Source of the DNA: a virus
Strand: one strand, 5' to 3'
DNA length: 64,000 bases
IMG/VR virus record: IMGVR_UViG_3300026484_000382
Location: 10,702 to 74,701 of that record
Positions 11,835 through 53,371 of this stretch are shown in pieces. The translations under genes and the position numbers were made by a program. A model generated the notes under the pieces. It made no database searches, was not told the DNA's origin, and worked only from the letters and a program-made list of their open reading frames with translations. Position 1 is the stretch's first letter. Each line of letters starts with the position of its first letter.

Positions 11835-11865
11835 TATGTTAAAATTAACAAAAAAAGGATTAACA

Positions 11866-12303
11866 ATGAGAAGTTTTAATTTAATTAAGACAGCGGCTAA
11901 GAAAAAAGATAATGGACTTAACACAGCTGAAAAAGCTGCTATAGCAAGTGCAGGAGTTGGGGCAGCTGCTTTATCACCTTATGCAGCGAAAAGTGTTATG
12001 AAAATGTTAGCAGAAAGAAGTGGTAAAAAAGCAGATAAATTATTAGCAAAAGCTGATACTTATAAAAATGCTAACAAATCAGGATGGTTCGGTGGTCTAA
12101 GAGAAGGTCACAAGAAAGAACATGAAGAGTTAATGGAAGTTTATAGAAAACAAGCAGAAGCAGCAAATAGAGCTCAAGGTAGAGCAGATTCTGTTGCAGG
12201 GTTTGTAGACAAACATGGTAAAAAATTAAAATATGCCGCAGGTGCAGGTGCCGCAGGTGCAGGAACTGGTTTAGTATATGGACAAGGACAAAGAAGAAGT
12301 TAA
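11866..12303 (+). CDS. KxA-leader protein (MRSFNLIKTA) with Gly/Ala-rich helices
   Basis: True start is behind AAAAAAGGATTAACA; similar to 48924..49328. Confidence 0.75.
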   Translation: MRSFNLIKTAAKKKDNGLNTAEKAAIASAGVGAAALSPYAAKSVMKMLAERSGKKADKLLAKADTYKNANKSGWFGGLREGHKKEHEELMEVYRKQAEAANRAQGRADSVAGFVDKHGKKLKYAAGAGAAGAGTGLVYGQGQRRS

Positions 12304-12414
12304 TCATTCCTCTTTCTCTTCTTTTTTCTTCACAAAAAAATAATCTTATAATTAATATTTCATTTTTATAAAACACTTTTTTATGTTATAATTAACAAAA
12401 AAAAGGATTTATAT

Positions 12415-13254
12415 ATGGAAAGATTTGGATTTAAATTGTTTAAAGACCCTGATTTAAATTATGAATTGGTTGCAGGTGATGTTAAAATTGCACTTAACTC
12501 TGTAAACCAACAAGAACAAACTGTTACAGTTTATTTTGGGGCTTGGGATCAATATGATCCAGCAAAACAAAAATCAATTAGAACGAAACTTACTTTGTCG
12601 CCAAATGACACCTTACTATGGACATTGGTTAGACTGGTGGATGATGGAGATGGAGGATTAAAAGAAATTCCCGCTGTTGAATTTGTTAAATCTGTAAAAG
12701 TAACTGCTCCTGATGAAGAAGATTTAATCTCTTTAAATCCTAATAATCATGTTGCTAACTTTTATTACAACGATGATGATGATAAGAAATTATCAGAAGA
12801 TGGAGATGATGTTATTTGGGGATTTTTTAATGTAGGTGAATATAAATTTGGATGGTCAACTTCTACAAATGTTGAGGCTGGGTATTTTAGAGCTGCAAAA
12901 AGAGATGATGATGATTCTTCTAAAGAAATTATTATGACTAGAAGAGATGTTTATGGTGATGATGATGACCACCCTGATAGATTTATGTTATGGTCTCATG
13001 GAGACAGATTACCACATGGTTGGTATATTAAGGACTTTTGGGCATATACTTACCCTAATGATGACGATGATGAAACACAAGCTAATGATATTATCCCTAA
13101 ATTAAAAACAATATCAACAGGAGTTGGTAATGCTATTAGATTTGATGTTACTTTTTATATTCCAGAAAATTATACTGGAGATAGTCAAGACCTATCGTTT
13201 AAATTTAAGATACTTGGTCTACAAAATGTTCTTGTTGAACAGAATGAAATCTAA
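12415..13254 (+). CDS. Asp-rich virion appendage protein, paralogue of 13357..14049
   Basis: FGFKLFKDPDLNYEL...STGVGNAIRFDVTF; own TGTTATAAT promoter. Confidence 0.6.
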   Translation: MERFGFKLFKDPDLNYELVAGDVKIALNSVNQQEQTVTVYFGAWDQYDPAKQKSIRTKLTLSPNDTLLWTLVRLVDDGDGGLKEIPAVEFVKSVKVTAPDEEDLISLNPNNHVANFYYNDDDDKKLSEDGDDVIWGFFNVGEYKFGWSTSTNVEAGYFRAAKRDDDDSSKEIIMTRRDVYGDDDDHPDRFMLWSHGDRLPHGWYIKDFWAYTYPNDDDDETQANDIIPKLKTISTGVGNAIRFDVTFYIPENYTGDSQDLSFKFKILGLQNVLVEQNEI

Positions 13255-13356
13255 TAGAGAGTCTTTGTTTTTTTTGCTGGTAAAGTAAAAACAGTATATT
13301 AATCGGCGGCACAGGATAGCCGCTATAACAAACAATAATTAAAAAAAGGATAAAAA

Positions 13357-14049
13357 ATGGCAATTAGTGGTAATGTTAATTTATTTGAATTAGGGTTTAG
13401 GTTTTATCATGATCCAAATTTGAGATACGAAATAACTCCGGATTCTCAAATAAGAATAGATCCAGCAACGGGTAAAGCAACAATGTTCTTTGGTATGAGA
13501 GACTATTTGGTTGATGGTGTAAGAACAAGAAAACAGCTAAAAGTTGTTCAAGGTGCTCCAACATTTTTTCTTGAAGCTATAGATGAAACTGGTCAAAGAA
13601 ATTGGGATGGTGTAAAAGGAATTCGTTGGGATGACAAAGGAACTATGACGTCTTACAATGATGCCCTTACTGCACCAGAAAGAATAAGTGATTATTACAA
13701 TGCCGACACTGCTTGTCCTAATGATAATACACAAGCTAGAGTTGCATTTGTATTTTGTTATGATAATAACGATACAAGATATAAAATTAAAAACTCTGAC
13801 GATGGTTCAACTAGAGAAGTTTATGCAAGAAACACAACAACTATTACATTAAATAAAAATGAGTACATTTATGGTATTAATTCTCATAGGAGTAGGCTTT
13901 TATCCGAATTGAAATCAGGAATAGATAATGCTTTTAAAATAGAAATTACATTTGATTTGGCTTATGATTTTACTGGACAGCAAAGAGGTTTAAATTTTTT
14001 TACAATGCCTGATACAGTTATTCAAGTTATAGAATATGTATTGGATTAA
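13357..14049 (+). CDS. Virion appendage protein, paralogue of 12415..13254
   Basis: LGFRFYHDPNLRYEI...KSGIDNAFKIEITF. Confidence 0.6.
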   Translation: MAISGNVNLFELGFRFYHDPNLRYEITPDSQIRIDPATGKATMFFGMRDYLVDGVRTRKQLKVVQGAPTFFLEAIDETGQRNWDGVKGIRWDDKGTMTSYNDALTAPERISDYYNADTACPNDNTQARVAFVFCYDNNDTRYKIKNSDDGSTREVYARNTTTITLNKNEYIYGINSHRSRLLSELKSGIDNAFKIEITFDLAYDFTGQQRGLNFFTMPDTVIQVIEYVLD

Positions 14050-14061
14050 TAAAGGGTTCTT

Positions 14062-15456
14062 ATGTTAATAACACTAGATTCAATAGGAATGAGGCTAACT
14101 TATGATAGGGAAGGGAGATACCCTATAGATATCTCCGAACCTATTGATTTACCATCTTATCAAAAAGAATTTGATTGTTACATGTCTTTAAAACAACCAA
14201 AACAATTAGAAGATGGAAGTTGGGAGTGGTATTATAACGACACTATGTTTCAAAATAATGTTGATACAAATTGGGGTTATAATTTTAATAGGATTACTAC
14301 TTGTGGAGGGCCATTTGGTGTAAAAGTTGGGCATAAGTTAGTTAAAAACAAGAGAAATATAAGTATAAATAATATCACCATAGAAGAAATGGTTTGGGCA
14401 GAAAAAGCCATAGATGTTTCTATATTTAAGAATTGGTTTAAAGATAAAGCCCCTTTAATATCTAGTTCTGATGGAGTTATGAATTATGATGAAGCAAAAT
14501 CTCATCAAATTTTCTCTTATTTTAAGCCAGATGGTAATACAGCATTAAGATATGAAGATTACTTTGGTGAAGAATTTTTTTTCTTAGAAAAGCCATATTA
14601 TATATCTGGGATTAACTATGAGTCAGTTGCTTTAAAAAATAATGAATTGTTTTTCAAAAAAACACTTAACAATAAAGAATTTTCATTTGGCGCAAGACTA
14701 ATGATACCATCAAGTGTTTGGGACAGTGAAAATACTGTAGATATATACGAGGATAATTATATTAAGATATATGTGGATTTAGCAAATAAAAATATTGTGT
14801 TCGTTACTAAAGGTTTACTAAATACTTCTGCCGAAAAATACATATACTTACCAAATACTTCTAATGAGTTTTTTAATGTATGGCTAACTTATAATAACGG
14901 GGTGGTTAAAGCGGGAGTAAACGATAATATTGAAACTTATTTTTCTAAAGCTATCCTTAAACCAAAGTATATTTTAAATAGAGAAGAGCTGTCTAATATA
15001 AGGGTAGAAGTTGTTGAAAGTGTTGGAAGAGTTGGAAGATCAAAATATTCATTAAAAATTATAAACGATGAAGATGATAAATTCTTAAAGTATTTATATT
15101 ATAATGATTATGATGAATTAAGCTACAAATATGATTTATGCCAAGGATATCGTTCAACTTCAAGATGCGGTCATAAATATCATTATTCTAACGAATATGA
15201 AGTACACAAATATGGATTGTCAAATATGGTATATCGCTCTTATGGATGTTGTTCGGGTGGTAATGCAATAGAAACATTGCGTTCACCAATAATTGGAAAA
15301 GGTTCTAAAATAAAAATAAGTAACATAGATGGACCATTCTATTTATGGCCATGGTTAAATGTAGGTGTAAAACAAAGAATATATAAAAATATACAAAGAA
15401 TACATCCAATATCTGGAAAATTAGAAACAGTTTCTTCGGAGTTAATTATAGTATGA
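14062..15456 (+). CDS. Putative tail appendage protein with LamG/ConA-like segment
   Basis: FSFGARLM...FFNVWLTYNNGVVKAGVND pattern. Confidence 0.5.
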   Translation: MLITLDSIGMRLTYDREGRYPIDISEPIDLPSYQKEFDCYMSLKQPKQLEDGSWEWYYNDTMFQNNVDTNWGYNFNRITTCGGPFGVKVGHKLVKNKRNISINNITIEEMVWAEKAIDVSIFKNWFKDKAPLISSSDGVMNYDEAKSHQIFSYFKPDGNTALRYEDYFGEEFFFLEKPYYISGINYESVALKNNELFFKKTLNNKEFSFGARLMIPSSVWDSENTVDIYEDNYIKIYVDLANKNIVFVTKGLLNTSAEKYIYLPNTSNEFFNVWLTYNNGVVKAGVNDNIETYFSKAILKPKYILNREELSNIRVEVVESVGRVGRSKYSLKIINDEDDKFLKYLYYNDYDELSYKYDLCQGYRSTSRCGHKYHYSNEYEVHKYGLSNMVYRSYGCCSGGNAIETLRSPIIGKGSKIKISNIDGPFYLWPWLNVGVKQRIYKNIQRIHPISGKLETVSSELIIV

Positions 15457-17579
15457 GTAATAATGTAGAAAATATAATGACTCAAGATATTCTCCAATAT
15501 TTTTCTATTTATGGGGATGAACAATTAACTAGGGAAATTGGAGCAAATGATATAATTGATTTGTGTGATATTGACAACACAATAACATTGTATATAACCC
15601 TTAATGATTATTTATCTATCAATGATCAAGGCCAATTGTGTATGGTTATTGATGGGGAATATAGGGTTGTTTTTTTTGATATAGTAAGAGAAATTGAAGG
15701 TAAATTTTTTAGAAATTATGATTTAGTGGAGAGTATAGAAACAGAATTTTTTTTTGACACAAAGCCATTAATAGAAAACCTAATTAAAAAAATAGATGGA
15801 GAACCTTTTATAAATGTAATGGGAGTTCTTAATTTTTTTAGTTTTAAATCTTTGAGTTTTAAAGAAATAAAACCTGATTATATAAAAGGTGAAGGGTATT
15901 CATATAGTTCGGAGGAGATATTTAATTATACTAATAAAATAATGACAGGAAATTTCTTAGTTCCTTCGTTTGATAAAAAAATAGGAGACCTAGCATCAGT
16001 TTTTCCAAAAGGAAATGTGGAGATGGATAAAGTCTATTTCTCTAAAAATGAGTTGGATAAGTTATTTTATTTAGATGTGTATTTAAAAAAGAAAGTTTAT
16101 TCTTTCCCAATTATTAGGGATGAAGTTACAGTTGGATATATAAAACAAAAGTATTACGAAGAACAAGTTAAAAATAATTTTTTTTTAACAGAGATTCCTG
16201 AAGGGTCAGATGTTAACCCAGATTATTTAACTTTAATAGAAAAAATATACAATACTAATTACATTAAAGATTGTTTACAGATAGAACCTATAAAAGAATA
16301 TCCAGGTTTATCTATAAGCGATTTATTTACACACTCGGCTTTATATTGGAATGGTTGTCTTGGAAAAGCACATATTAATATATTGGGGGACATAAAACCT
16401 ACTTGTTATATAGTGCAAGACAAGTTTAAAAATTATATGGGTGATTTTAGTTCTGATTATAGATTAGGGCTTTCATCTCATGAAGTGTTTCAACGATGGG
16501 CTTGGTATATAGAGAAAGGAATGGAAAGAACTTTAGATGAGAACGAAACAAATGATGAAATATTTATCTACAATACAAAAACAAAAGGTAATCTTAAACG
16601 AAAATTAATGAACGAGTCAATAGCAACTGGCTTATTGGGGTTAGGTAGAGTATCGACTATTGAAAGATACAACTCACTATATCCTTATTTAGAGAAAGAC
16701 GGTGCCATGAGAGATATGACGATTCGACCTAATTACTTTTTATTTAAAACACCTCCTTATGGGAAAGAACAATATAAAGAAGGAGAAAGGGGGAGTATTT
16801 GGAGTGACTTTTCAATGCAAAAAATAATATATGCTGCAATACATAATAATGGTGATATGTATATGCAAGATAGGGTTAAAAACGTATTAGATTCGCATGG
16901 TGGTGGGACAGAGTATAATTTTTTTGTTTCTTATGATACTTTTTGCAAAAAACACGACATTAATCTTAATTATATAACTAAAACGGATAATGAAGGGATA
17001 GCTGAAAAATCATATATTTTAATGGAAAGCTTAAGAGCTAATACAGAAATCCCAACTAAAGTATATTGTGAGTTTTATGACAGAAATCACCCTGCTCCAT
17101 TAGATAATATTTATGCTTACGTCCCAATCCCATTAACTCCAGGAAACTATAAATATAAAAATATTCCTTTAAAAGACGAACATGGTATTATTATTTACAA
17201 TAACAAAGGAAAGCCTATTGTAGACATAAATAAAGGTTTATACAGAATAGAAGATAAAATTGCTATGAAAGAAGATATAGGGTCTAATCTAATAATACAC
17301 AAAAGAAAAAGAAGTGAAGATTCCGATGGAAATGTTACAATAGAAGATTTAGGGGAAGTTGAATATCCTGGAAACACATGGAAAATACCTTTTAATGAAG
17401 GGGAGTATTTGTATAAGTGTAAGTGTAATGCTGTGCATACTTTTATTTCTAGAGACATGAAATTTAAGATAAAAATAAAATTTAAAAAAACACCAAATAG
17501 AGAACAAAATATATATTTTAGATTGTTTGCGCATGATTATACTTTTGGTAGAATGTTTTGCATAAAAAGGAAAAGATGA
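15453..17579 (+). CDS. Large putative tail/appendage protein
   Basis: Operon context; N-terminal FSIYGDEQLTREI motif. Confidence 0.5.
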   Translation: MSNNVENIMTQDILQYFSIYGDEQLTREIGANDIIDLCDIDNTITLYITLNDYLSINDQGQLCMVIDGEYRVVFFDIVREIEGKFFRNYDLVESIETEFFFDTKPLIENLIKKIDGEPFINVMGVLNFFSFKSLSFKEIKPDYIKGEGYSYSSEEIFNYTNKIMTGNFLVPSFDKKIGDLASVFPKGNVEMDKVYFSKNELDKLFYLDVYLKKKVYSFPIIRDEVTVGYIKQKYYEEQVKNNFFLTEIPEGSDVNPDYLTLIEKIYNTNYIKDCLQIEPIKEYPGLSISDLFTHSALYWNGCLGKAHINILGDIKPTCYIVQDKFKNYMGDFSSDYRLGLSSHEVFQRWAWYIEKGMERTLDENETNDEIFIYNTKTKGNLKRKLMNESIATGLLGLGRVSTIERYNSLYPYLEKDGAMRDMTIRPNYFLFKTPPYGKEQYKEGERGSIWSDFSMQKIIYAAIHNNGDMYMQDRVKNVLDSHGGGTEYNFFVSYDTFCKKHDINLNYITKTDNEGIAEKSYILMESLRANTEIPTKVYCEFYDRNHPAPLDNIYAYVPIPLTPGNYKYKNIPLKDEHGIIIYNNKGKPIVDINKGLYRIEDKIAMKEDIGSNLIIHKRKRSEDSDGNVTIEDLGEVEYPGNTWKIPFNEGEYLYKCKCNAVHTFISRDMKFKIKIKFKKTPNREQNIYFRLFAHDYTFGRMFCIKRKR

Positions 17580-18712
17580 TGGGTTGTTGTTCGTCTAGAG
17601 ATTTGTATTGCACGAATGATTATAGTGGTTTTATAGTTTTTAAACCTGACAACTTTACAGTTAAAGGAGTCTATTTTTCTGGGTATGAAGCAAATGGAGT
17701 AGAAACAGCAAATGGTTTTATTTTTTCAGCAGGGAAAGATGGTGTATTTGGGGGTGTTGTAAAAAACGATGAATTTAATGCTATTTTTAATGTTTCTATA
17801 GATGATTGGTTTCCTGATGTTGATGTCAGTGAATGCAATATAGCTATGATAAAGGCTCTTCCTGTAACTATGGATAAGGTTTATGTTTGTGTTATTGCGT
17901 ATAGTGGGTATGATTTGTATTTTTATAGTAAAATAGTAAATGTTTTTACAATATTCAATAATTCGACTATAGAACTAAACAAACAAGAAGAAATTGAGCC
18001 AATTGTAGAATATCAAGCAAACAGTGACAACGAGGAAGTGGTTGACGTAACATCTTCTATTAATAATGATTTTAATGTAGATGAAGCTAGAACTGTTATA
18101 ATGGGAAAAATAAAGGATGATTTAGAAGATATTTTTGATACAAAATTACCTTCTTTTATTGAATTAAAAACTATTTTTTCATTAAACTCAAATGGAGGTT
18201 TTGATGGTATATTATATATGTTAGATGTCGACTGTTTAACTATAAAAAAAAGGAGAATATTTACAGATTTAGATATTAACGCGGGAGATAATATTGAAAC
18301 CGTTAAAACATTAGAAAAGCCTATTGTTATACCTGACAAATATGCTTTCACTAATTTTGCTACATATGGGTTAAGGAATGGTACTTGTTCTAAAATGTAT
18401 AGTGTTGTTAAGAATTCGGATGAAAGTAGTTTTTTGTATTTATTTACGACAGACAAAATAACATTTTTTGGTTATTCAGATGAGAACACTCTTATTTACT
18501 CTAACACACAAAGCAAAGCAATGTTTTTTAAATGTGATACGGATAAGGTGGATGAGTTTAATATATTTAATAATATTATCATTAACCCAAAAGATGGTGT
18601 TTATGCTAAAACTTTAGATGCGCCCATTGCTTTACCGAGTGGAACATTAGAGCAACAAGATGAAGATATTACTTTTATTAGTTGTTTTGATATTTATTTT
18701 AATTATAAATAA
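17558..18712 (+). CDS. Hypothetical structural protein
   Basis: Long ORF in the structural operon; true start probably at the ATGATG near 17576. Confidence 0.5.
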   Translation: MHKKEKMMGCCSSRDLYCTNDYSGFIVFKPDNFTVKGVYFSGYEANGVETANGFIFSAGKDGVFGGVVKNDEFNAIFNVSIDDWFPDVDVSECNIAMIKALPVTMDKVYVCVIAYSGYDLYFYSKIVNVFTIFNNSTIELNKQEEIEPIVEYQANSDNEEVVDVTSSINNDFNVDEARTVIMGKIKDDLEDIFDTKLPSFIELKTIFSLNSNGGFDGILYMLDVDCLTIKKRRIFTDLDINAGDNIETVKTLEKPIVIPDKYAFTNFATYGLRNGTCSKMYSVVKNSDESSFLYLFTTDKITFFGYSDENTLIYSNTQSKAMFFKCDTDKVDEFNIFNNIIINPKDGVYAKTLDAPIALPSGTLEQQDEDITFISCFDIYFNYK

Positions 18713-18724
18713 AAAGGAGATTAT

Positions 18725-20374
18725 ATGTTATCAGTACCCATGGAAGTTTACTTAGATTTTTCTTTAAGAAAAAAAGTAAATAATATAAATATAAATGTAA
18801 ATCAGTTAAAATCTCAAATGTCAAATATGGATGTTTTTTATTTATCTAATAGATTCAAACCTACTTCTGACGGGAGAGTGGTGAATACTAAAATAGTAAC
18901 AGACTCTACTTTTTTTATAAGATTTACAGATGAAACAAATAATTTAAATTTTACAATGTTACGATATGCTTATTTTGGTAATGTTTTTGAAAGTGATTTT
19001 GAAACAATGTCTTTTACTCCTCCAGATCCAGAGAATTACGCTAACTATTATGGGGATAAAGTTGTAGAGTTTGAAGAAGGGGATTGGCTTTATTTTGCTT
19101 ATGTTCCTTTTGGGAGAAATGTTATAGAGTTAAATGATGGAAAAACTATTACAACTTGTGGAACGCAAGGTAAAGTGTGGATAGAGAAAGGGCAGGCATT
19201 TAAAAGATATGTTAGTATACCAAAAGTTCCTGAATTGTTTGCTATGGGACCATATAAAATAATGAAGTTAGTAATAGGGTCAATGTGGGAAAAATATGGG
19301 CCACAAAGATATTCTGTATCTATTTTTTCTCCAGATATGAAAGAAGTAGAAGAAAGTGCTTATGATCTTATTCCTATGGATGATGTGCTTTCTTATGTTA
19401 ATAATACAGTTGCAACTACAGAAAGGGGTTTACATTTGGTGGATTGGAAAAATCCAGAAACTCCAATAAGAGCAAATGCCTCTATACAAACAGGAACACC
19501 TATAAGAAATCTAAAAAACAAATTAATTTTAAGTAAAAGTGGATATGTGAATATGAACCATATTGGACCAAAAATAAAAGAAGAATTTACTATTCATATG
19601 AATTTCTCAGCATATAACACTAACCACAGAGGGACAATCCTTTTTGAGGCCGCTTATGGAATAGATGACGATGGAAATCAAACGCATCATATTACAATAT
19701 GGGCAAATAAAGACGGTTTTATTTGTTATAACTGTAAATTTAATGATGAATATGTGAATACAGGAGAGAAATTACCAACAAATATCTACACAACAATGAC
19801 TTTTGTTTTAGCTAATGTGCAGATTAATCCAGAAAAAATGGATGAAAAAAAATATATGGGATTTATATTTATAAATGGGAGGCAGATATGGCCTAAAGAG
19901 ACATATTTAAACCCAGACGAAGTACAAGTTTTAAGTAGGGGATATAAAGCGTATAGAACATATACTGATGTATGTATGAATTTAGAAGCAAACACAACAA
20001 CAATGGCATACATAGATGCAAAAAGTTTATGTATTAAAAAACTACTAAAAGAGTCAGGGTTTGTTTCTATTGAGACTTTAAATCAAGTATATCAACTGTA
20101 TTTAAACGCACCATCTCCAACAAAAGTAGATATAGATAAAGAATTTGTGATTGGGGATGATGATAAAACTACAATAAAAAAGTTATATTTTGGACAAGAC
20201 TCTTATGAAGATATTTTAGACCAAGAATATTATTTTGAAGGTGAAATTTATGAAATTGTAGTATTAAATAGGGCATATACAAGAAGAGAGGTGGAAAATA
20301 TTAACTTAATCTCATCGTTAGGATATAGTGTAGTTGATATTTATTCACAAGAAATAGAGAAAAAAGATGAATAA
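18725..20374 (+). CDS. LamG/concanavalin-A-like domain protein (putative receptor binding)
   Basis: EFTIHMNF...IFINGRQ...FEGEIYEIVVLNRAYTRREVENI. Confidence 0.7.
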   Translation: MLSVPMEVYLDFSLRKKVNNININVNQLKSQMSNMDVFYLSNRFKPTSDGRVVNTKIVTDSTFFIRFTDETNNLNFTMLRYAYFGNVFESDFETMSFTPPDPENYANYYGDKVVEFEEGDWLYFAYVPFGRNVIELNDGKTITTCGTQGKVWIEKGQAFKRYVSIPKVPELFAMGPYKIMKLVIGSMWEKYGPQRYSVSIFSPDMKEVEESAYDLIPMDDVLSYVNNTVATTERGLHLVDWKNPETPIRANASIQTGTPIRNLKNKLILSKSGYVNMNHIGPKIKEEFTIHMNFSAYNTNHRGTILFEAAYGIDDDGNQTHHITIWANKDGFICYNCKFNDEYVNTGEKLPTNIYTTMTFVLANVQINPEKMDEKKYMGFIFINGRQIWPKETYLNPDEVQVLSRGYKAYRTYTDVCMNLEANTTTMAYIDAKSLCIKKLLKESGFVSIETLNQVYQLYLNAPSPTKVDIDKEFVIGDDDKTTIKKLYFGQDSYEDILDQEYYFEGEIYEIVVLNRAYTRREVENINLISSLGYSVVDIYSQEIEKKDE

Positions 20375-21167: not shown

Positions 21168-21183
21168 AAAAAAGGAATACAAA

Positions 21184-29596: not shown

Positions 29597-30118
29597 ATGA
29601 CTTTTACGAACATAAGTAAAGCAGTTTTAGTGTTAAATGGTAGATTAATAGATCCTAGTAAATCTATCTTTGTAAGTGATGATAGTTTAAAATCAAATGC
29701 TCACAAAGTTCTTCAATATTGTGTTACTAACAAAGGTATTGTAAAAGATGTTACAGGAAAACAAATGTCTGTTGAAACACTTAAAGAATATATTGAACAT
29801 AGTGTATCAACAAAAAACGAACAAGTAGAAAAAGAAAAGGATGATTATCTTGATATACTTAAAGAAACTATTAAAGAGGAAGAAGCAAAAGAAAAGTCTG
29901 TCGCTGAAACTAAAAAAGAAACTGTTAAAGTGGAAAAAGAAAAAGAAGAACCTGTTACTGAAGTAAAAGAGCCTGTTGTTGAAGAAACAAAAGAACCTGT
30001 TGTTGAAGTAAAAGAACCTGTTGTTGAAGTAAAAGAGCCTGTTGTTGAAGAAACAAAAGAACCTGTTGTTGAAACTAAAAAAACTAATTCAAGAAAAACA
30101 ACATCAAGAAGAAAATAA
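29597..30118 (+). CDS. Protein with EPVVE(E/V)(T)K repeat tail
   Basis: Own TGTTATAAT promoter; six tandem units. Confidence 0.65.
   Translation: MTFTNISKAVLVLNGRLIDPSKSIFVSDDSLKSNAHKVLQYCVTNKGIVKDVTGKQMSVETLKEYIEHSVSTKNEQVEKEKDDYLDILKETIKEEEAKEKSVAETKKETVKVEKEKEEPVTEVKEPVVEETKEPVVEVKEPVVEVKEPVVEETKEPVVETKKTNSRKTTSRRK
29948..30079 (+). repeat. Coding tandem repeat with 21/24-nt units
   Basis: GA(A/G)CCTGTT...GAA unit repeated six times. Confidence 0.9.
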
Positions 30119-42982: not shown

Positions 42983-43354
42983 ATGGATTTACTAAAAGTA
43001 GCAAACGACCCATATGCGAGTTATTTAACAAAAACAGCCGCGGTGATCAGTGATTTTGAACAAGGAAGAATTACTGCTGATGAAGCGTTTGGAGCAGCTC
43101 AAGAAATGGGAATTGCACCACAAGATTTAGTTGCAGCTCAAGAAGTTTTATTTAAAGAAGCTTCAGAAAGTGCTAGCCTTGAAAAAGTAGCATCAATTGT
43201 AGATGACCCTTATTGCACACCACTTGAAAAAGTAGCAGCGATTGTAGACGGTATTGCTGCAGGAACTGTTGATTATGATGCAGGAACTCAAGTTGCAGCT
43301 CAATTAGGATTTGATGCTCAAGACATGGAATATATCTACGCACAAACTCACTAA
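42983..43354 (+). CDS. Acidic protein with five KxA sites and an internal duplication (scaffold/core-like)
   Basis: LLKVA, LTKTA, LFKEA and LEKVA twice; promoter TTGACC-17-TAAAAT. Confidence 0.7.
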   Translation: MDLLKVANDPYASYLTKTAAVISDFEQGRITADEAFGAAQEMGIAPQDLVAAQEVLFKEASESASLEKVASIVDDPYCTPLEKVAAIVDGIAAGTVDYDAGTQVAAQLGFDAQDMEYIYAQTH

Positions 43355-43366
43355 GCTAACCTAAAA

Positions 43367-45352: not shown

Positions 45353-45369
45353 TTTTATATCCTTAGAAT

Positions 45370-45777
45370 TTATCTAGACAAACTTCCTGCTGTTTGAATG
45401 TATTTTAATGCTTTTTCTGTTTTAGAACCTCTATTAATATCAGCAATAATTTTAGCTGTTGCTAAATCAACATTACCACCATATTGATGAATTTGATATA
45501 TAGCATCTGCCATCAATTCTTTATTATCAGCCATTCTAGGAGATAAAGTATAAACTGCTCCAGCCCATGCTTTTAATTTACTGTCAGACACTTCTCCTAA
45601 CTCTGGATGTTTTCTTTTAGCATATTTAACAATACTATTTAATCTAATCTTAAACATTAAATCATCTGTTTGCTGAATTACCTTTTCAGCTCCTACTAAT
45701 GTTGCCGTTGTTCCACCTACTGTCATAGCAATATCTTCTAATTTACTTTTCTCAGCTATTTTTTCTAAATAAGACAT
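45370..45777 (-). CDS. KxA-leader head-associated protein (MSYLEKIA)
   Basis: Leader motif; own promoter and SD. Confidence 0.6.
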   Translation of the reverse strand: MSYLEKIAEKSKLEDIAMTVGGTTATLVGAEKVIQQTDDLMFKIRLNSIVKYAKRKHPELGEVSDSKLKAWAGAVYTLSPRMADNKELMADAIYQIHQYGGNVDLATAKIIADINRGSKTEKALKYIQTAGSLSR

Positions 45778-45843
45778 TTGAAATCCTTTTTTTGTATTAA
45801 TTATAACATATTTTGATATAATATTTAAAAAAAGGATTTTGTA

Positions 45844-47109
45844 ATGTTGAATACGAACGACATATTAGATTCATTTAAAATGATAAATCCAAAAATAATA
45901 CAAAAAACAATAGACAAATACACAACTATATATAAAAATAAGTATCCCCAAATTGATTTTTCAAAACAAGAAAATATAGATTTTATTGTAATGCCTGTAG
46001 TTGCAGCTGAGCTTACAATAGAACTAAACAAAAATAAATTATTATCAACTAATACAATAAATGGTGTTATAGACTCAAACATGACAGAAGATGAAAAACT
46101 TTCAGCATTAAAAGCATATGCTAAATTAATAGGATTTAAACCTATTTCTAATTCGTGGGAGAATTTGTATAATGAAATTATTCAATTTACACAAAACAAT
46201 TGGTACAATCTAAAAACACCTATCTCTAATTTTATTTTAAACAAGTTTAATTATATTGAAAACATATACATATCTGATAGCAATTCTTCAGAAATGGTAA
46301 GAAATAGAGTTTACTATATCCAAATACCTGGTATGAAAATAAACACATTTGAACTATCAGACAACAATCAAACTAATTTATTTAATTACGCTTTCTCTAT
46401 AGATGATTATGAAAAATACAAAGCAGCAAAAGAAGGCGGTTTTTTCAGTTTACCTAGCTGTATAGATTTATATTTATTTACAGAAATAAAAGAAAGTACT
46501 TTAAAAGTAACTCCTATTGATAATTATTTTTCTTTGAAAGAAGGCTATTATGTTAGTGTAGAATGTGATGAACATCAAATAATCCATTCAAATTTTAATG
46601 ATAAAAATGTTGATGGAATTATTTTTTGTAAACCAAGATTTTATGTTGATACAGAAGAAGAAATAGAGATTAAAATAAGAGAATACATTCTGCCCAATAA
46701 AGACGAAATAAAAGTAGACGAGCTAGTTACTACATCCGATATTTTAATAAAAGCACCTTATCCAATCTTTATTTCACTACTTTGTTACAGTTCTGAAAAA
46801 TATTCTTCTTCCGATAAAGAAAATATGAAAAACATTTTAAATGAGTATCTTAAGTCGAAACATAGAAATCCTAAAGAGATATCTTTGAAAGATATGTCTA
46901 ATGTTTTGTTAAGTAATAATTATAATGTAGATTTGCAGCCAAAAGTAAATATAGAATTATATCCTTATATAAATTATCAAGTTAAAAAAGAAGCAATTTT
47001 TCCATTAACAAAAAAAGACTACAGATTAAACAATGCTGATTTATATAACCAAATTTCAAACAATACATCTGTATTCTACATAAAGGATATAAATGTTATA
47101 CCAGAATAA
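45844..47109 (+). CDS. Putative baseplate wedge protein (J-like)
   Basis: IDFIVMP N-terminus; SEMVRNR and CIDLY segments; divergent promoter. Confidence 0.5.
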   Translation: MLNTNDILDSFKMINPKIIQKTIDKYTTIYKNKYPQIDFSKQENIDFIVMPVVAAELTIELNKNKLLSTNTINGVIDSNMTEDEKLSALKAYAKLIGFKPISNSWENLYNEIIQFTQNNWYNLKTPISNFILNKFNYIENIYISDSNSSEMVRNRVYYIQIPGMKINTFELSDNNQTNLFNYAFSIDDYEKYKAAKEGGFFSLPSCIDLYLFTEIKESTLKVTPIDNYFSLKEGYYVSVECDEHQIIHSNFNDKNVDGIIFCKPRFYVDTEEEIEIKIREYILPNKDEIKVDELVTTSDILIKAPYPIFISLLCYSSEKYSSSDKENMKNILNEYLKSKHRNPKEISLKDMSNVLLSNNYNVDLQPKVNIELYPYINYQVKKEAIFPLTKKDYRLNNADLYNQISNNTSVFYIKDINVIPE

Positions 47110-48865
47110 TCAAAATAGTATATTGTTTTATTCCTTATTGGGAGACTATTATATATATATGTATAAAAAAAATGAAAAAAGCGACTGTATAAACACAGGG
47201 ACATCTATTTTGCTTGAAGAAATATTTGAAGACACTTCACATATAATAAATAGTAGTTTTTTATATAAAAATACAACATCTTTGTTTTTTATAGGAACAA
47301 TAGAGTATATTGATAGTAATACAATTAGATACTTTGATATTAATGGAAAAGAAATAAACCCAACATCCGTATATATATTAAATAAAGAAAATGATATTAT
47401 TTTTAACACTTTAGAGCAAGATGAAATAATAAAATATTTACAAAAAAATAAACTTTCGTTATCTCTTATTTATTATACAAAAGAACAAAAACTAAATGCA
47501 GATGAAATAGCTGCTATGTTTAATGTAACAGATATAGATGTAAGTAAGTTTATTGCGTATTTAATGTATAAGATGATTCAACATAATGTTTACAATAAGA
47601 AACTAGTTAACAATTTAATAGCAATATATTTCAATACCCCATTCTGTTTAACAGAAAAAGAAAAGATATTAAAATATCAAGACGGAAAAGTTATTACAGA
47701 TGTGAATGAATATGAAATAATTCATGATGTATACATAAAGAAAAAAGGTGATATTAAATTTGGAGAACCTTTATATTATATATCCAAGATTAACAATTCA
47801 AATTCTAGTGTAATCAATAATATTATTGATAAAATGTTTTATATCGATAACTATTCAAATGCTTTTTATTTGAATAAGCTAAAAACATATGTAACATCTA
47901 CCTTTCTTAACGCCAGTATATCTGTTGATGTGCTTATTCAGAATCCAAAAAAAGGAACCGTATTAGCAAATATTTTTAGAAATATTTCTTACATAGATGC
48001 TTCTTTAAATACCTACAAAGAGAAAGAGGAAGAAATTAAGGTTTCGCTTGAAAGTAATTTGAAGTTAATAGAAAAAGGATTATTTGAAGCAAAAGAGACC
48101 ACAGTAATAACAACACATTATTATGATGAAAATGTTAATGCTGTTACATTATTAGATGAAAAACTTAAAATTATAGAGAAAGGGAAAGTAGATACACTTG
48201 AAACTGAATTCAAGAAAGGTATGTCCCTAGAAAAAAATATAATAGATGCAATAGGAGAAGATAAAAACAAAGAATATGTAAAAGAAAATTTATCAAGTGT
48301 TGAAAATTCAAGATTAACAGCATTATGGGAAAAATTTAATTTAAAAAATTTAATAGAAAAAGGTGTTAAAAAAATTATCTATAGTGATACTTTAAAATAT
48401 CCAAAAAACGATAATTTAAAATACAAGTATGTTATTACTCCTACATACAATGTTATTGAAAAATACATAGAAAATATTAGTTATTTTGCTTTTGATTTTA
48501 CCACATTGCCTACTGACGATATTTTAACAAAAATATATGATATTAATACCCCACATACTTATGAAACCTTAAAAAAACAAGGGCTTGTTGAAAGAAGTGA
48601 AAGTAATAAAATGAAAGGGAAAGAAACATTAAAATATTTGTCATTATCTCTTTTTAGTGGAACAGAATTGACTAAAAACAAGACTACTATTGATAGGTCT
48701 CTTTTAAGAACCAGGGATACATTAGGTGGAAACGTTTATTTAAACAAAGAAGAAGTTAACAATCTATTGTCATCAAACAAATTAAGCAAAAAGATTTCTA
48801 ATGTGTTTATACAAAAAGACGAATTAACAATGGACAGTAATACACTAATAGACGAGAAAAAATAA
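47093..48865 (+). CDS. Putative baseplate wedge protein
   Basis: Follows the J-like gene; C-terminal LKxIEKG-type repeats. Confidence 0.45.
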   Translation: MLYQNNQNSILFYSLLGDYYIYMYKKNEKSDCINTGTSILLEEIFEDTSHIINSSFLYKNTTSLFFIGTIEYIDSNTIRYFDINGKEINPTSVYILNKENDIIFNTLEQDEIIKYLQKNKLSLSLIYYTKEQKLNADEIAAMFNVTDIDVSKFIAYLMYKMIQHNVYNKKLVNNLIAIYFNTPFCLTEKEKILKYQDGKVITDVNEYEIIHDVYIKKKGDIKFGEPLYYISKINNSNSSVINNIIDKMFYIDNYSNAFYLNKLKTYVTSTFLNASISVDVLIQNPKKGTVLANIFRNISYIDASLNTYKEKEEEIKVSLESNLKLIEKGLFEAKETTVITTHYYDENVNAVTLLDEKLKIIEKGKVDTLETEFKKGMSLEKNIIDAIGEDKNKEYVKENLSSVENSRLTALWEKFNLKNLIEKGVKKIIYSDTLKYPKNDNLKYKYVITPTYNVIEKYIENISYFAFDFTTLPTDDILTKIYDINTPHTYETLKKQGLVERSESNKMKGKETLKYLSLSLFSGTELTKNKTTIDRSLLRTRDTLGGNVYLNKEEVNNLLSSNKLSKKISNVFIQKDELTMDSNTLIDEKK

Positions 48866-48923
48866 AATAAATTGCAAAATAAAATATTTTATGCTACAAT
48901 AAACAAAAAAAAAGGATTAACAG

Positions 48924-49328
48924 ATGAGAGCATTTGACCTTATCAAAACTGCAGGTGCAGAATATGGATACGACGAACAAGACAATGAAGGACTATCTCC
49001 AGTAGCTAAAGCAGCAATCGCAGCAGGGCTTCTTACAGCAGGTGGAGCAGGATTAAAATATGGTGGTCCTAAATTAGCAGACCACATGATGGATAAAGTT
49101 AATAAATTAGGCGATGAAAGTGAAAAAATTAAAGCAATGTTAAAAAAGAAAAAAGATGATAAACCTCTTTATGAAAATGCTAGTAAGGCTAAAGAAGCTT
49201 TAAATAAAAAATGGCAAAAATTAAAAGAGATCGGTGAGCACAAACATGGTGGGAAAGCACTTATTGGTGGAGGTGTTACAACTGCAGCTCTTGCTGGAAC
49301 AGATTACTACCAAAGAAATAGAGGGTAA
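48924..49328 (+). CDS. KxA-leader protein (MRAFDLIKTA) with two Gly/Ala helices
   Basis: Promoter TTGCAA-17-TACAAT; similar to 11866..12303. Confidence 0.75.
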   Translation: MRAFDLIKTAGAEYGYDEQDNEGLSPVAKAAIAAGLLTAGGAGLKYGGPKLADHMMDKVNKLGDESEKIKAMLKKKKDDKPLYENASKAKEALNKKWQKLKEIGEHKHGGKALIGGGVTTAALAGTDYYQRNRG

Positions 49329-49415
49329 TCTCTCTTTTCTTCTCCTATTATTTTCTTTACTTACTTCTTTTAATAAAATCAAAATTATGCTACAATAAAT
49401 AAAAAAAGGATTACA

Positions 49416-49877
49416 ATGAATTCAAAAAGTTACTTTTTATTTAAAACAGCTGATGACAATAATAATGGTGTTGGGACAGGAACTATTGCAGGAGGTGCTT
49501 TAGCATTAGGTGGGCTTGGAAGTATGGGATACGGACATAATTTAATTAATAAAGCTACACCTGATACTCCACTATTTTCAAAAGGAAACCAACTTGGTAC
49601 ATTAGGATATGGTGCTGCAAATATCCAACAAACTAAAACAATTGGAGAAGCAAATACAAAAAAAATTAATGATTTTGTTGAGTTTAATGGTGGAAAAGAA
49701 AAATTTGATGTTAACAATCTAGATGAAACAGGAAAGAAGACATATAATAAAATGTTAACAGAAGGTGAAAATATAGCTAATTTAGGAAAAGGTTCTAAAT
49801 TTATGCATTATGGGAAAATTGGTGGACTACTTGGTGGTGGAATGATGTTAGGATCAATGCTAACCAATAATAATTAA
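49416..49877 (+). CDS. KxA-leader protein (MNSKSYFLFKTA) with glycine-zipper helices
   Basis: GTIAGGALALGGLG and GGLLGGGMMLG; own TGCTACAAT box. Confidence 0.75.
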   Translation: MNSKSYFLFKTADDNNNGVGTGTIAGGALALGGLGSMGYGHNLINKATPDTPLFSKGNQLGTLGYGAANIQQTKTIGEANTKKINDFVEFNGGKEKFDVNNLDETGKKTYNKMLTEGENIANLGKGSKFMHYGKIGGLLGGGMMLGSMLTNNN

Positions 49878-49889
49878 AAAGGATATAAA

Positions 49890-50144
49890 ATGAAGATAGA
49901 ACAAATTTCTGAACTATTAGAAAAAACAGCTGCTCATATAGAGATGCTTGAAAATGAAAACAATATGTTAAGAAAAAAATTAGAAGAAAGTGTTTCTGCA
50001 GTTAATTTAAACAAAGAAGCTTCTTTTGATTTTTCAGATGTAGTAAATAACGACTATGATTCTTTAGGGCAACCTTCTAATTATTCCCCGAGTAATCAAC
50101 TTTCTTCTGGGCAAAAATTAGAAGAGTTCTTAAATAATTTATAA
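49890..50144 (+). CDS. Small scaffold-like coiled-coil protein with KxA sites
   Basis: LLEKTA and LNKEA; upstream of the capsid genes. Confidence 0.6.
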   Translation: MKIEQISELLEKTAAHIEMLENENNMLRKKLEESVSAVNLNKEASFDFSDVVNNDYDSLGQPSNYSPSNQLSSGQKLEEFLNNL

Positions 50145-50230
50145 AAAAACTCTCTATAAATAAGAGCATTTCTTATTTTTGTTTTTTTTGTATAAAATAA
50201 TGGTAATAAAACCAAAAAAAGGATAAGCAA

Positions 50231-50617
50231 ATGAAGAATATTGATATTGTAAGAGGTTATAGAACCTTTAGTCATGAAGACTTATATGATGCTGATGCAA
50301 CTGTAACAATTGTGCCGGGAGATGTTATAGGTCTTGACGGAAACAAAATAACATTAGAAAAAACGCATAAAGAAGCTGGAATCGCTCTTGAGTCAAACAA
50401 AGATATTGCTGGTAATAAACCAAGTGGAAAAATCCCAGTATGTGTTAGTAATTTTGTTGTAAGATTTTATAGACCGGTTCCGGATGAGGTTAATTTAGGT
50501 GATCCTGTTACAGTTATTGATGGAAAACCATCTAAAACAGACGATGACCATACGGTAATTTGGGGATATGTTACAAGAATAGACGAAACATCTTTTGATG
50601 TTAGAGTAAATTATTAA
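50231..50617 (+). CDS. Putative capsid decoration/cement protein
   Basis: 128-aa beta protein directly before the major capsid gene. Confidence 0.6.
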   Translation: MKNIDIVRGYRTFSHEDLYDADATVTIVPGDVIGLDGNKITLEKTHKEAGIALESNKDIAGNKPSGKIPVCVSNFVVRFYRPVPDEVNLGDPVTVIDGKPSKTDDDHTVIWGYVTRIDETSFDVRVNY

Positions 50618-50634
50618 AAAAAAAAGGATAAGAC

Positions 50635-51570
50635 ATGAGTATTAATGTAGAAACTCCAGTAATTCAACAAAACACAGGGTTAATTAAAGCAGCTTATGCT
50701 GGTGGTGACCTTTTAAAACAAGCTATGGATAACAGCACATACTTTATTAGGGATAAAGTAAGAGAACTTGGTTTTGCTAGAAAAGTGATTGAACCCATTT
50801 TTGTTACAAGTGCAGATTTAGATAGAGTTCCAAACAATGAACAACCTGCTATCATCTTAGAAAAAGATATCGAAAGTAAAGGGATGACAGTGCCATTCAG
50901 AGGGCAAGGAGAACAAAGATATTGGGAAAGAGAAGACATGGTTGTTAATTTCCAAAAAATTGAATCAGAAAGAATTAACAAATCTAAATTCGAAATGATG
51001 ACTTCTAAAACTCCATATACTGAAGTTCTTAAAAAAAGAATTGTTGAAGAAGTGCAAAAAGTTGAAGATGAAACTTTAATGAACGGATTTAATGCTATCA
51101 TAGAAAAAGCAGAAGAAGAAGCTCCTGGTACACAATATCAAGAATTAGAAGGTGGATTAAATAAAACAAACATTAAGATATTAATCCAAATGCTTTCAAG
51201 ATTAAAAATGATTCCACCAACAGGTCCAAAACCAAAAATCTTAATGACACAAAACCTTAAATTAGAACTAATTGAATTAGGTATGATTGAGATTGGTGAT
51301 TCTAATGTTGGAAAATATTGGAATGAAGGTGTAGTTGGGGTAGATAAATTATTCAATATCCCTGTAGTATCTACAATTAAAAATGATTTAGTAAAAGATG
51401 ATGAAGTGTTTATTATTGCTCCTCAAGATTACTTCGGAAGATTCTTTATTTTACAAGACCACACAATGGTTATTGAGACTAAAGCAGATATGATGAATAT
51501 GTATACTTATGCTGCTATGGGAATGGGATTCGTTAATACAAAAGGTGTATGTAAGATTAAATTATCTTAA
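50635..51570 (+). CDS. Major capsid protein (HK97 fold)
   Basis: IRDKVRELGFARKVIEP...EEVQKVED backbone helix; KILM, LFNIPVVSTIK and YAAMGMGFVN; strongly biased codons; LLKQA site near the N-terminus. Confidence 0.8.
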   Translation: MSINVETPVIQQNTGLIKAAYAGGDLLKQAMDNSTYFIRDKVRELGFARKVIEPIFVTSADLDRVPNNEQPAIILEKDIESKGMTVPFRGQGEQRYWEREDMVVNFQKIESERINKSKFEMMTSKTPYTEVLKKRIVEEVQKVEDETLMNGFNAIIEKAEEEAPGTQYQELEGGLNKTNIKILIQMLSRLKMIPPTGPKPKILMTQNLKLELIELGMIEIGDSNVGKYWNEGVVGVDKLFNIPVVSTIKNDLVKDDEVFIIAPQDYFGRFFILQDHTMVIETKADMMNMYTYAAMGMGFVNTKGVCKIKLS

Positions 51571-51646
51571 TCTTACTCCTCTTTTGGAATTATTAAGAGA
51601 TATTTATTTATATGTTTTAATAATTCACAAAAAAAAAAGGATAAAT

Positions 51647-52600
51647 ATGATTTTTGGTAATGCTCAAAAGTATGTATCGATAGCAAAACAAATTATTAAT
51701 GAAATAAGTCATGGGGGAGACAACCCAGAGGAATTATTGAATAAGTATGCTAAAGAATACAATCTAAATGACAACATGAAACAAAGAGTTGTAGAAGAAT
51801 ATAATGTAAATATGTTTTTAAGTAAATTGAAAGATGGTAGTCACCAAGAGCATTACGTATTATTGAATCCTGTTATTGATGAAACACAAAAATGGAATTC
51901 TATCATTGAAAAAAATAATAAAGAAAATGAACATAAAAAGAATATGACTAAAACAGCTTTTTACAATGAAGAAGCTAATATTGTGTTTAAAAATAATTCA
52001 ATGGAATATGACCATGACCCACTTTTAAATGGTTCTTTTTCCGATAAAACATTGGTAAGTTCTTTTGAGTACGGAGATACTTCTGATTTACTTAAAGATG
52101 CTTCTTACAGAGAAAAACGTAGAGAAGAAGAGAAGTTTAAAGAGTTAGTAAAAACTGCTCACTATAAAGGTCATGAAGTTATAAATCAATTAGCAAATGA
52201 TTTAATAAAAGTAGCAAACATTTCAACAGGAGCTACAAAAACTATAATTTATGATTTAATTAAAGAAGGGCATGAAGATATTGCTAATACTGTTATGGAA
52301 AACTGCAAATACAAACCAAACGAAATACTTGCAGCAAAAATGACAGATGGTATATTTGAGCAAGATTTGCCTTTATTAAAAACATCTCAAGAACTTATAA
52401 AAGAAGCAACTATAAGTAAATTAATTATGAGAGTAATATCAGAAAAAGGTATGGAACATATTGGAAGTGCTTTAAACAAAATAAAAACTATGGTAGGGCC
52501 TAAAAATAGAGCAAAAATATATATGGCTTATGTAATGAGCAAATTCCTTACAGATAAAAAGCCTGGCGCATTACACAATAGTTTTATTCAGAACGCTTAA
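51647..52600 (+). CDS. Head core/scaffold-like protein with many KxA sites
   Basis: Start behind A-run AAGGAT; MTKTA, LLKDA, LVKTA, LIKVA and LIKEA. Confidence 0.65.
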   Translation: MIFGNAQKYVSIAKQIINEISHGGDNPEELLNKYAKEYNLNDNMKQRVVEEYNVNMFLSKLKDGSHQEHYVLLNPVIDETQKWNSIIEKNNKENEHKKNMTKTAFYNEEANIVFKNNSMEYDHDPLLNGSFSDKTLVSSFEYGDTSDLLKDASYREKRREEEKFKELVKTAHYKGHEVINQLANDLIKVANISTGATKTIIYDLIKEGHEDIANTVMENCKYKPNEILAAKMTDGIFEQDLPLLKTSQELIKEATISKLIMRVISEKGMEHIGSALNKIKTMVGPKNRAKIYMAYVMSKFLTDKKPGALHNSFIQNA

Positions 52601-52611
52601 AAGGATATAAT

Positions 52612-52746
52612 ATGGAAAACAATCAAAATTTAATTAAAATAGCTCAGGTAGTTAAAGAGCACGCAAAAAAATGGTATTTAAAAAAAATGGCAGCGTTAAA
52701 AATAATAGACACTATAGATGCATATAAAGAGGCAATGAAGAACTGA
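52612..52746 (+). CDS. 44-aa KxA peptide (MENNQNLIKIA...)
   Basis: AAAAGGAT SD; LIKIA, LKKMA and YKEA; below the ORF-track cutoff. Confidence 0.6.
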   Translation: MENNQNLIKIAQVVKEHAKKWYLKKMAALKIIDTIDAYKEAMKN

Positions 52747-52773
52747 TTTACTAATTCAGCTTTCTCAAGCCAT

Positions 52774-52800
52774 AGGCCCCAACTTTAATTTATGGGGCTT
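52774..52800. terminator. Hairpin between convergent genes
   Basis: AGGCCCCA...TGGGGCTT. Confidence 0.5.
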
Positions 52801-53329
52801 ACTGCTCTTTTTTGCTGTTATTGACTGCTTTGTGTGCAAAATAAGCTTGAGCGGCTCCTACAGTACCTATTCCACCCATAGTTTGTCCTTGTAATTTAGC
52901 TTCTTGTTTTATTAATTTTTTAAACAGATCTTTACTTTCAGCTAACAACTCATTTTTTTCACTTTTCGGTATCTCGTCAAGTACTTTTGTTGCCTGTTTA
53001 AGATTATAAATACGGTGTAACCCTTTTCCTAGTGCACCTGCTATTACACCTATCCCCGCACTTCTATTTATCTCAGCATCACTAGAACCCATTTGTTTTG
53101 CTAATAATGGAGCAGCTACAGACCCTCCTAATAAACCTAACTCAACTGGTAAAGAAAAACTTTTATATCCTTTTTTGCCTTGCAAAACTTGAACAAGATA
53201 AGGAATATCTTCTTGTAGTAGAACCCCTGATGCAGCACCTCCAGCTGCAGAAATCCCATCACTTATCATTTTTTTACTTTTATCAGAATCTTTTTTGTTT
53301 GCTGTTTTAATTAAATAAAAACTTCTCAT
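52799..53329 (-). CDS. KxA-leader protein (MRSFYLIKTA) with Gly/Ala helices
   Basis: True start at 53329; SAAGGAASG, GLLGGSVAA, AGIGVIAGALG and GGIGTVGAA. Confidence 0.75.
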   Translation of the reverse strand: MRSFYLIKTANKKDSDKSKKMISDGISAAGGAASGVLLQEDIPYLVQVLQGKKGYKSFSLPVELGLLGGSVAAPLLAKQMGSSDAEINRSAGIGVIAGALGKGLHRIYNLKQATKVLDEIPKSEKNELLAESKDLFKKLIKQEAKLQGQTMGGIGTVGAAQAYFAHKAVNNSKKEQ

Positions 53330-53334
53330 TGTTA

Positions 53335-53371
53335 ATCCTTTTTTAGATATAATTATATCTAAAAAAAGGAT
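53335..53371. promoter_or_regulatory. Palindromic bidirectional promoter/RBS unit
   Basis: ATCC-T6-AGATATAATTATATCT-A7-GGAT, with TATAAT and AAGGAT on both strands. Confidence 0.75.

Follow-up and report, generated by a model that had tools for sequence, protein, structure and literature searches.

A ribosome-binding-site and leader tract shared as DNA by two small genes of a hydrothermal-vent phage: a probable short-tract copy and a putative capsid-targeting signal

Short-tract gene conversion between dispersed paralogues is a general process, and mosaic joints at gene starts occur in phages. The internal proteins of phage T4 share only a leader, which directs packaging and is removed by the protease gp21 (PMC12373910, PMC3012670, PMC7411985); in T4 and SPN3US the gp21-type cut is made after x-x-E (PMC7411985). 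PeSL cassettes are regulatory repeats that drive modular shuffling (PMC2839356, PMC4122927). Here we analyse a short DNA tract, made up of a ribosome-binding site (RBS) and the first codons of a leader peptide, that stands in front of two small genes, A and B, in the virus record IMGVR_UViG_3300026484_000382 (positions 10,702 to 74,701; this whole stretch of 64,000 nucleotides (nt) is called the window below). An earlier interpretation made from the letters of the window (the sequence-only reading) had described the tract as part of a copied promoter-RBS-leader module with which the phage recruits new cargo. The explanation that we favour, with slightly better than even confidence, is a joint one: a recent short-tract copy between the old paralogues A and B, and a leader that acts as a signal for capsid targeting and for cleavage by the prohead protease.

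The locus resembles each of the described systems in part. As in the T4 Ip1-3/Alt system, an N-terminal leader of ~10 residues is common to otherwise dissimilar phage proteins; the leader genes, like those of the T4 internal proteins, are small, non-core and variable among relatives, and a gp21-fold protease is encoded. However, the leaders of this phage end in K-x-A and have no Glu at a gp21-type site (L/I-x-E, A-x-E). The phage is not T4-like and has an HK97-type capsid protein of 311 amino acids (aa), and its predicted cargos are Gly-zipper proteins of membrane type with one architecture, whereas those of T4 are soluble anti-restriction proteins. By analogy, the leader system would work like that of T4 and would not belong to it by motif, because the Glu-terminated cut site is missing though the shared leader and the gp21-fold protease are present. 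With PeSL cassettes the locus has in common short conserved regulatory sequences before small accessory genes, which could serve as recombination substrates. Unlike PeSL cassettes, which consist of a sigma-70 promoter and a terminator stem-loop, the A/B tract has neither of these elements and extends into the coding region; in addition, no mini-circle or shuffled junction was found in the contigs of public vent runs. Gene conversion is suggested by near-identity that is sharply bounded within diverged copies and by synonymous-site identity confined to the tract. The tract differs from typical cases in being only ~45 nt long and in being dated by two genomes; the conversion event itself, its direction and its mechanism we infer from the comparisons given below.

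The window is the final 64 kb of a 74.7-kb viral contig, with a G+C content of 28%. The features on which the argument turns are as follows.

11851-11894, plus strand: tract copy 1, with an A-run, a GGA Shine-Dalgarno sequence, the spacer TTAACA and codons 1-10 of gene A (MRSFNLIKTA)
53301-53344, minus strand: tract copy 2, with the same RBS and spacer and codons 1-10 of gene B (MRSFYLIKTA)
11866-12303, plus strand: gene A, 145 aa; leader, K/D-rich linker, Gly/Ala-rich hydrophobic helix, polar helical middle and C-terminal Gly zipper
52799-53329, minus strand: gene B, 176 aa; layout as in gene A, plus an additional central Gly-zipper segment
48924-49328, plus strand: gene C, 134 aa; encodes the leader MRAFDLIKTA with other codons and thereby controls, within the genome, for selection on the peptide only
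11817-11845, plus strand: promoter-like site of gene A (TTGCAA, 17 nt, TAAAAT with TG), absent from gene B
53339-53372, no strand assigned: palindromic intergenic region with overlapping back-to-back TATAAT boxes and mirrored A-run/GGA sites

The match reported by the sequence-only reading was confirmed by alignment and by a pattern scan with 100 shuffles. Positions 11851-11894 agree with the reverse complement of 53301-53344 at 42/44 nt (0 expected by chance), the two mismatches being A/T in codon 5 and G/A in codon 8; in a slightly longer frame, 11846-11894 against the reverse complement of 53301-53349, 45/49 nt agree (92% complementary). A degenerate leader pattern, allowing up to three mismatches, matched the window only at A and B and gave 0 matches in the 100 shuffles. 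The start context AGGATTA(N)CA(N)ATG was found five times in the window (at 11856, 48913, 49407, 53327-53339 on the minus strand and 61121) against 0.10 expected; the related starts noticed earlier before 48924, 49416 and 61130 are therefore real. All five AGGATTA(A)CA(G)ATG starts head small Gly-zipper genes (A, B and C, together with genes D and E described below), and the context occurs nowhere else in the window.

The edges of the tract were placed with the help of a close relative, IMGVR_UViG_3300026484_000465, which is collinear with our record at ~91% nucleotide identity and has both genes, with matching bodies, at matching sites; its orthologues are designated A' and B'. In a four-way DNA alignment (A, B, A', B') a sharply bounded block begins at the A-run of the RBS and ends with codon 10. 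Past codon 10 a weaker, low-complexity similarity (x-K-K-D) continues to about codon 14, with a one-codon indel in the window phage; the reported drop in similarity right after the KTA codons thus stands as a sharp edge, to which a weak tail has to be added. On the 5' side of the A-run the A and B loci are unrelated, so the promoter lies outside the copied unit. It is in this point that the proposed module has to be corrected: the promoters of A and B are unrelated, and the unit comprises the RBS spacer and ~10-14 codons. The A-rich RBS follows a genome-wide consensus, a dispersed promoter/RBS consensus being found at >12 sites.

The 34-nt palindrome at 53339-53372 serves gene B on the minus strand and a divergent gene at 53376 on the plus strand and is unrelated to the promoter of A. 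The 46-nt gap between B and gene 53376 is taken up almost wholly by a perfect palindrome, TTTTTTAGATATAATTATATCTAAAAAA, in which the two TATAAT boxes point away from one another with an overlap of 2 nt; each arm gives one of the genes its A-run/GGA site. The promoters of gene B and gene 53376 may be mutually exclusive.

Whether the tract is shared as DNA, or only as a peptide, can be read from the codons. We compared the codons at comparable positions of the A and B leaders with the expectation under the codon bias of the genome. The A' leader is the same as the A leader. Between A and B' the leaders agree at 29/30 nt and at 8/8 comparable codons, among them two rare ones, AAG (13% of Lys codons) and GCG (6% of Ala codons); the probability of such a match is 2e-4 given the codons of A and 3e-3 unconditionally. 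The leader of gene C, in contrast, differs from that of A at 11/30 nt and has 2/7 comparable codons equal, and a relative known from a 4.7-kb contig fragment (L014, 550-1484) has two adjacent MYLYKIA genes in different codons, a natural case of a leader kept by peptide selection alone. Peptide selection alone, therefore, does not yield DNA identity, and the RBS and leader are shared by A and B as DNA beyond what the peptide requires, as the sequence-only reading had claimed. In the L014 pair the leader is followed by a basic region in one gene and by a Gly zipper in the other.

The leader DNA appears to be under no unusual constraint at the nucleotide level, because the orthologous leaders of C, D and E show synonymous differences between the two phages (TCA/TCG, GCA/GCG, GCT/GCC), as does the leader of B, and because RNA folding in the tract is not significant (z from -0.9 to +0.7). 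The B leader has three changes in 30 nt relative to A, and two synonymous differences between B and B' fall inside the leader. The B' leader is 1/30 nt away from A' and 4/30 nt away from its own orthologue B; no site is shared-derived within a genome, the comparison being one of two genomes only. The leader varies at four sites, each of which is private to B or to B'. It follows that at the time of the split between the two phages A and B had one and the same leader DNA, whereas their gene bodies could no longer be aligned. The sequences thus point to a tract younger than genes A and B, which would have arisen by a short copy or conversion.

The mechanism that we envisage is the following. Every family member would combine a promoter of its own with the RBS spacer specific to the family, GGATTA(A)CA, and with a leader ending hydrophobic-hydrophobic-K-x-A. 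The near-identity of A and B over 45 nt would result from a recent short-tract copy between dispersed, inverted paralogues, via gene conversion or recombination, around or shortly before the split from the close relative. Probably an A-type sequence was laid onto B. We prefer this direction because the likeness of A to C continues into the first helix, while the 5' end of B is A-like only across the tract. We read the native relationship of A as being with C, since their likeness extends into the first helix while the codons have diverged; gene C would be the oldest recognisable paralogue of A. The A/B copy would be a single event in two close metagenomic genomes, an ordinary mosaic joint by phage standards, and the K-x-A leader system as a whole is the more interesting object.

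The other members of the putative family are listed here.

49416-49877, plus strand: gene D, 153 aa; leader MNSKSYFLFKTA, start context AGGATTACAATG
61130-61561, plus strand: gene E, 143 aa; leader MNASDFIKVA followed by SNKD, start context AGGATTACAATG
7354-7893, minus strand: gene F, 179 aa; leader MNATQYLIKTA, C-terminal Gly zipper, differing RBS spacer

The architecture common to the family members consists of the leader, a K/D-rich linker, a Gly/Ala-rich helix, a polar helical middle, a C-terminal Gly zipper and a short polar tail. The different cargos of the sequence-only reading thus share a single layout, and A, B and C can be weakly aligned to about residue 35-42. The members are real genes, as judged by ratios of non-synonymous to synonymous divergence (dN/dS) of 0.09-0.55, indicative of purifying selection; dN/dS is 0.24 for gene A against the relative and 0.38 for B against B', where the synonymous divergence (dS) is 0.39. 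Pfam and PHROGs offered no family for A or B, and the ESM Atlas, searched with B, returned only generic helical, membrane-like look-alikes scoring <0.9.

Full-length homology of A and B, which would have indicated an ordinary gene duplication, was looked for by BLASTP, hhalign and tblastn, and no homology of the bodies was detected. BLASTP aligned A with B over residues 1-35 only (E 4e-4), A with C over residues 1-34 (E 2e-5) and B with C over residues 1-42 (E 2e-3). With the leaders removed, shuffle z-scores were 1.7 for A-B and 3.0-4.7 for A-C, C-D, C-E and D-E. The hhalign probability of the mature parts was <5% for every pair, and tblastn of the mature parts against one another, the genome, a 161-kb relative and 80 related loci produced nothing significant. 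From their sequences, A-E, and perhaps F, look like an old, fast-diverging paralogous family of small Gly/Ala-zipper proteins.

The leader motif is by no means confined to this family. The pattern [LIF][LIFY]K[TVQKIA]A, a strict pattern derived after seeing the matches, was found within the first 25 residues in 11/91 genes and twice elsewhere; with a looser pattern 12 genes matched, against 13 matches elsewhere in about ten times more positions (~18,000 other positions). The K and A of the leader are kept in the orthologues of the relative while neighbouring residues change. Among the genes with the motif are those of the head.

50635-51570, plus strand: major capsid protein (HK97 fold), 311 aa; GLIKAA (residues 15-20) and LLKQA (residues 26-30)
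60066-60731, plus strand: prohead protease (phrog_18299, E 1.2e-11)
59315-60076, plus strand: coiled-coil scaffold-like protein with the leader MNSISFLYKKA; overlaps the start of the protease gene

The capsid protein has no PHROG or Pfam match and was assigned by structure (AlphaFold pLDDT 87; Foldseek matches to HK97, T5 and encapsulins, E about 1e-8). Its K28 and A30 are invariant in close homologues, and K-x-A is the consensus of a 51-sequence alignment. The protease has no Pfam match and its fold is closest to T4 gp21: for the AlphaFold model (pLDDT 77) the top Foldseek match was gp21 (5jbl; E 2.6e-3, probability 1.0, TM 0.52), followed by herpesvirus assemblins. In its N-terminal segment L-x-K-x-A is invariant in 14 homologues (DWLQKEA followed by S in this phage, FLVKTA in homologues) and would look like a self-processing site. 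A motif that is invariant in the protease and conserved in the capsid family suggests a specificity different from that of gp21.

Most likely, by analogy, the leader serves as a signal for targeting to the capsid and for cleavage, much as in T4 but with another cut motif; that the proteins are cut, packaged and ejected we infer from this likeness. Recognition of the leader would take place in the prohead, and the gp21-fold protease would cut it off at K-x-A or beside it, as happens to the capsid-targeting sequence of T4. If the leader is indeed such a tag, the 'address label' principle of T4 would have a second case with no sequence relationship to the first, in a clade of phages of which hardly any have been cultured, and candidate ejected proteins could be picked out by a scan of N-termini. 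The A/B pair would then indicate that the label can be moved or homogenised as DNA between genes, one way in which new or drifting genes could stay addressable.

A few further observations concern the protease and its possible substrates. The N-terminal segment of the protease family has a conserved H-C-x-G-S-C-D-F-L alongside the invariant motif, and the catalytic domain has a conserved C-x-x-C ... C-x-H cluster that could be a metal site. Several acidic proteins have more than one K-x-A (42983-43354, 55997-56494, 49890-50144): MDLLKVA and then LTKTA, or GLDKTA ~25 residues in. To judge by these motifs, such proteins may be cut more than once.

No Pfam or PHROG model covers the family of the capsid protein (A2; window 50635-51570; L103 12001-12924), which comprises 485 representative clusters. 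Its isolates, as far as found, are limited to Salmonella phage Arash and the Vibrio phages D69, D181 and D148, and throughout the family a K-x-A is conserved where the N-terminal arm ends. Judged by the capsid protein, the closest phage in culture is the 'orphan' Arash (OQ632216); its capsid protein gp226 is 34% identical to that of our phage and has GLVKEA at residues 24-29, in the column of the conserved K-x-A. Arash differs from our phage: it is an enterobacterial phage of 181 kb and lacks homologues of A and B. A wider proposal, which we put forward tentatively and regard as clearly less probable than the explanation favoured above, is that this large, almost uncultured myovirus clade (capsid family A2, to Arash) uses the K-x-A leader as address and cut site for a gp21-fold protease specific for Ala instead of Glu, and so loads a quickly changing set of Gly-zipper membrane proteins into the head for ejection; in the present phage the leader DNA would be exchanged between genes as well, by which they stay or become addressable.

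More distant relatives were reached through homologues of the capsid protein (80 loci fetched in a scan with a 7-sequence alignment). Those at 68-70% capsid identity have genomes of 161-162 kb, a complete one of 161 kb having direct terminal repeats; our 74.7-kb record is therefore probably a fragment of a larger genome. The proteins of this record were found again on an 84.7-kb contig. In the 68-70% relatives no homologues of A or B were found; Gly-zipper genes have the leaders LYKIA, LYKMA and LLKIA, the capsid protein has GLVKAA, and a 50-aa gene has a similar leader. No DNA-identical leader pairs were found in the complete 161-kb relative. At the site of B, between a 44-aa and a 481-aa gene, these relatives, which are too diverged for joints to be seen, have another gene of 204-207 aa on the plus strand, and the region upstream of the neighbour of A also differs. 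Gly-zipper genes with the leader thus appear to turn over in number and place among relatives.

Closer matches are few. Neither megablast (12 kb) nor tblastn (protein A) against 50,697 phage records gave a match. A search of 5.8 billion proteins with A and B led to nothing beyond the phage itself, a single relative at 75-92% and a contig of 796 bp, and the degenerate leader-DNA pattern, run over IMG/VR and JGI metagenomes, had the close relative as its sole other carrier. Most genes beside A and B have no PHROG. The phage and its ~91% relative were found together in one vent sample (run X1, window 48800-55000) at a contig depth of roughly 2:1, which offers an opportunity to recombine. Divergence between the two is very uneven, with dS from 0.03 (protease) to 0.39 (gene B), and suggests a mosaic history.

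The public runs in which this uncultured phage is found are hydrothermal-vent metagenomes, with no RNA run listed among them. Upstream of the window (L099 4687-5112) there is a type IV pilin-like gene with a prepilin-type N-terminus, whose protein is 60% identical over its full length to that of a gene from an uncultured Nautiliales metagenome-assembled genome (MAG). This gene, a possible host clue, may be host-derived. Because of its similarity to the Nautiliales gene and the vent origin of the runs, a Nautiliales bacterium of hydrothermal vents is the likely host.

Several observations weigh against the copy that we favour. Within the window itself, A and B have 6/8 codons equal where 4.1/8 are expected (P = 0.15 for six or more), which is not significant, and it takes the one relative to make a case for a DNA copy. 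The classic signature of conversion, A = B differing from A' = B', was seen at no variable site, and one older partial duplication followed by slow divergence would agree with the data just as well. The A-B similarity past codon 14 is of low complexity and insignificant on its own (z = 1.7; hhalign <1%), so that the bodies count as putative paralogues. No A/B hybrid or inversion joint was present in the contigs of four public vent runs, which may miss rare forms; these contigs represent two co-occurring strains, and the sole loose end at 53301 is the A locus itself. For the cleavage part, the virion proteome of Arash was published with no analysis of N-terminal processing (PMC10585845).

If the tract is old, its identity might come from an old duplication with no later exchange, in which the N-terminal signal and the initiation region are the most constrained parts and codon identity is the outcome of bias and chance. 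The insignificant codon count within the window agrees with this idea, and so does the fact that gene C is preceded by almost the same 15 nt, as family or functional constraint would have it. Against it stand the eight of eight codons matched between A and B', rare ones included, and the free change of synonymous sites in leaders of orthologues and paralogues (gene C, the L014 pair); with dS already at 0.39 between B and B', the synonymous sites of a leader that dates back as far as the unalignable bodies would be expected to have reached saturation. We hold this explanation to be improbable, a shade more so than modular cargo capture, which we consider unlikely as well. In the latter case a portable RBS-plus-leader cassette would be put by recombination before unrelated genes, which would become capsid-addressable, and B would be such a capture. 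The tract is identical as DNA before bodies that cannot be aligned; for the B body no homologue was detected, be it in the genome or in relatives, and B lies on the opposite strand and occupies a site that holds another gene in the 68-70% relatives; and Gly-zipper leader genes vary in number and position among relatives. A precedent exists in T4 Ip1-3, which have only the leader in common (PMC12373910, PMC3012670). However, B has the family architecture and its weak alignment with A and C, the promoter is outside the tract, and we know a single pair, the complete 161-kb relative having none. The check proposed along with the sequence-only reading, a comparison of cargos behind the cassette in related phages, gave the same bodies at the same sites in the only close relative. 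The copied tract before different bodies thus survives as one recent event, and recurrent recruitment of new cargo was not seen.

Two ideas have much less to recommend them. An RNA-level regulatory element (a translational operator or a target of a small RNA or repressor) might co-regulate A and B, the bases being conserved instead of the peptide; the identity does cover the RBS and the coding start, the usual place of translational operators. We find this quite improbable, given that the tract has no significant fold, that one of the 3/30 nt changed in the B leader breaks the sole weak hairpin and that the peptide motif is present in ~10 other genes with different DNA. Least probable of all, to a degree that we would hardly reckon with it, is cutting of the leader by a host protease and not by that of the phage. 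The capsid and scaffold proteins of Staphylococcus phage 80alpha have a leader of the Prp/L27 type cut by the host protease. The likeness to it is superficial only: a short N-terminal extension ending at Ala, then a K-rich stretch. On the other side are the likely Nautiliales host, supported by the pilin-like gene and the vent runs, and the invariance of the motif in the N-terminal segment of the phage protease. Prp (PF04327) did not rise above the cut-off in 41 genomes of this order, the host order being the likely one, while control genomes matched; the host-Prp idea was rejected.

Other repeats in the window are of different kinds. A 21/24-nt tandem repeat at 29939-30091, within a 173-aa gene (29597-30118), encodes at least five copies of (E/K)-E-P-V-V-E-(V/E)-K. 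A local duplication is seen as a 219-nt direct repeat of 76% identity, with a continuation (6283-6539 against 6933-7187). A second local duplication consists of two adjacent paralogous genes, at 8480-8902 and 8904-9311, which encode proteins of ~140 aa each (MPTISTMFDKPLEED, MGNTIKTRFDSPLEED).

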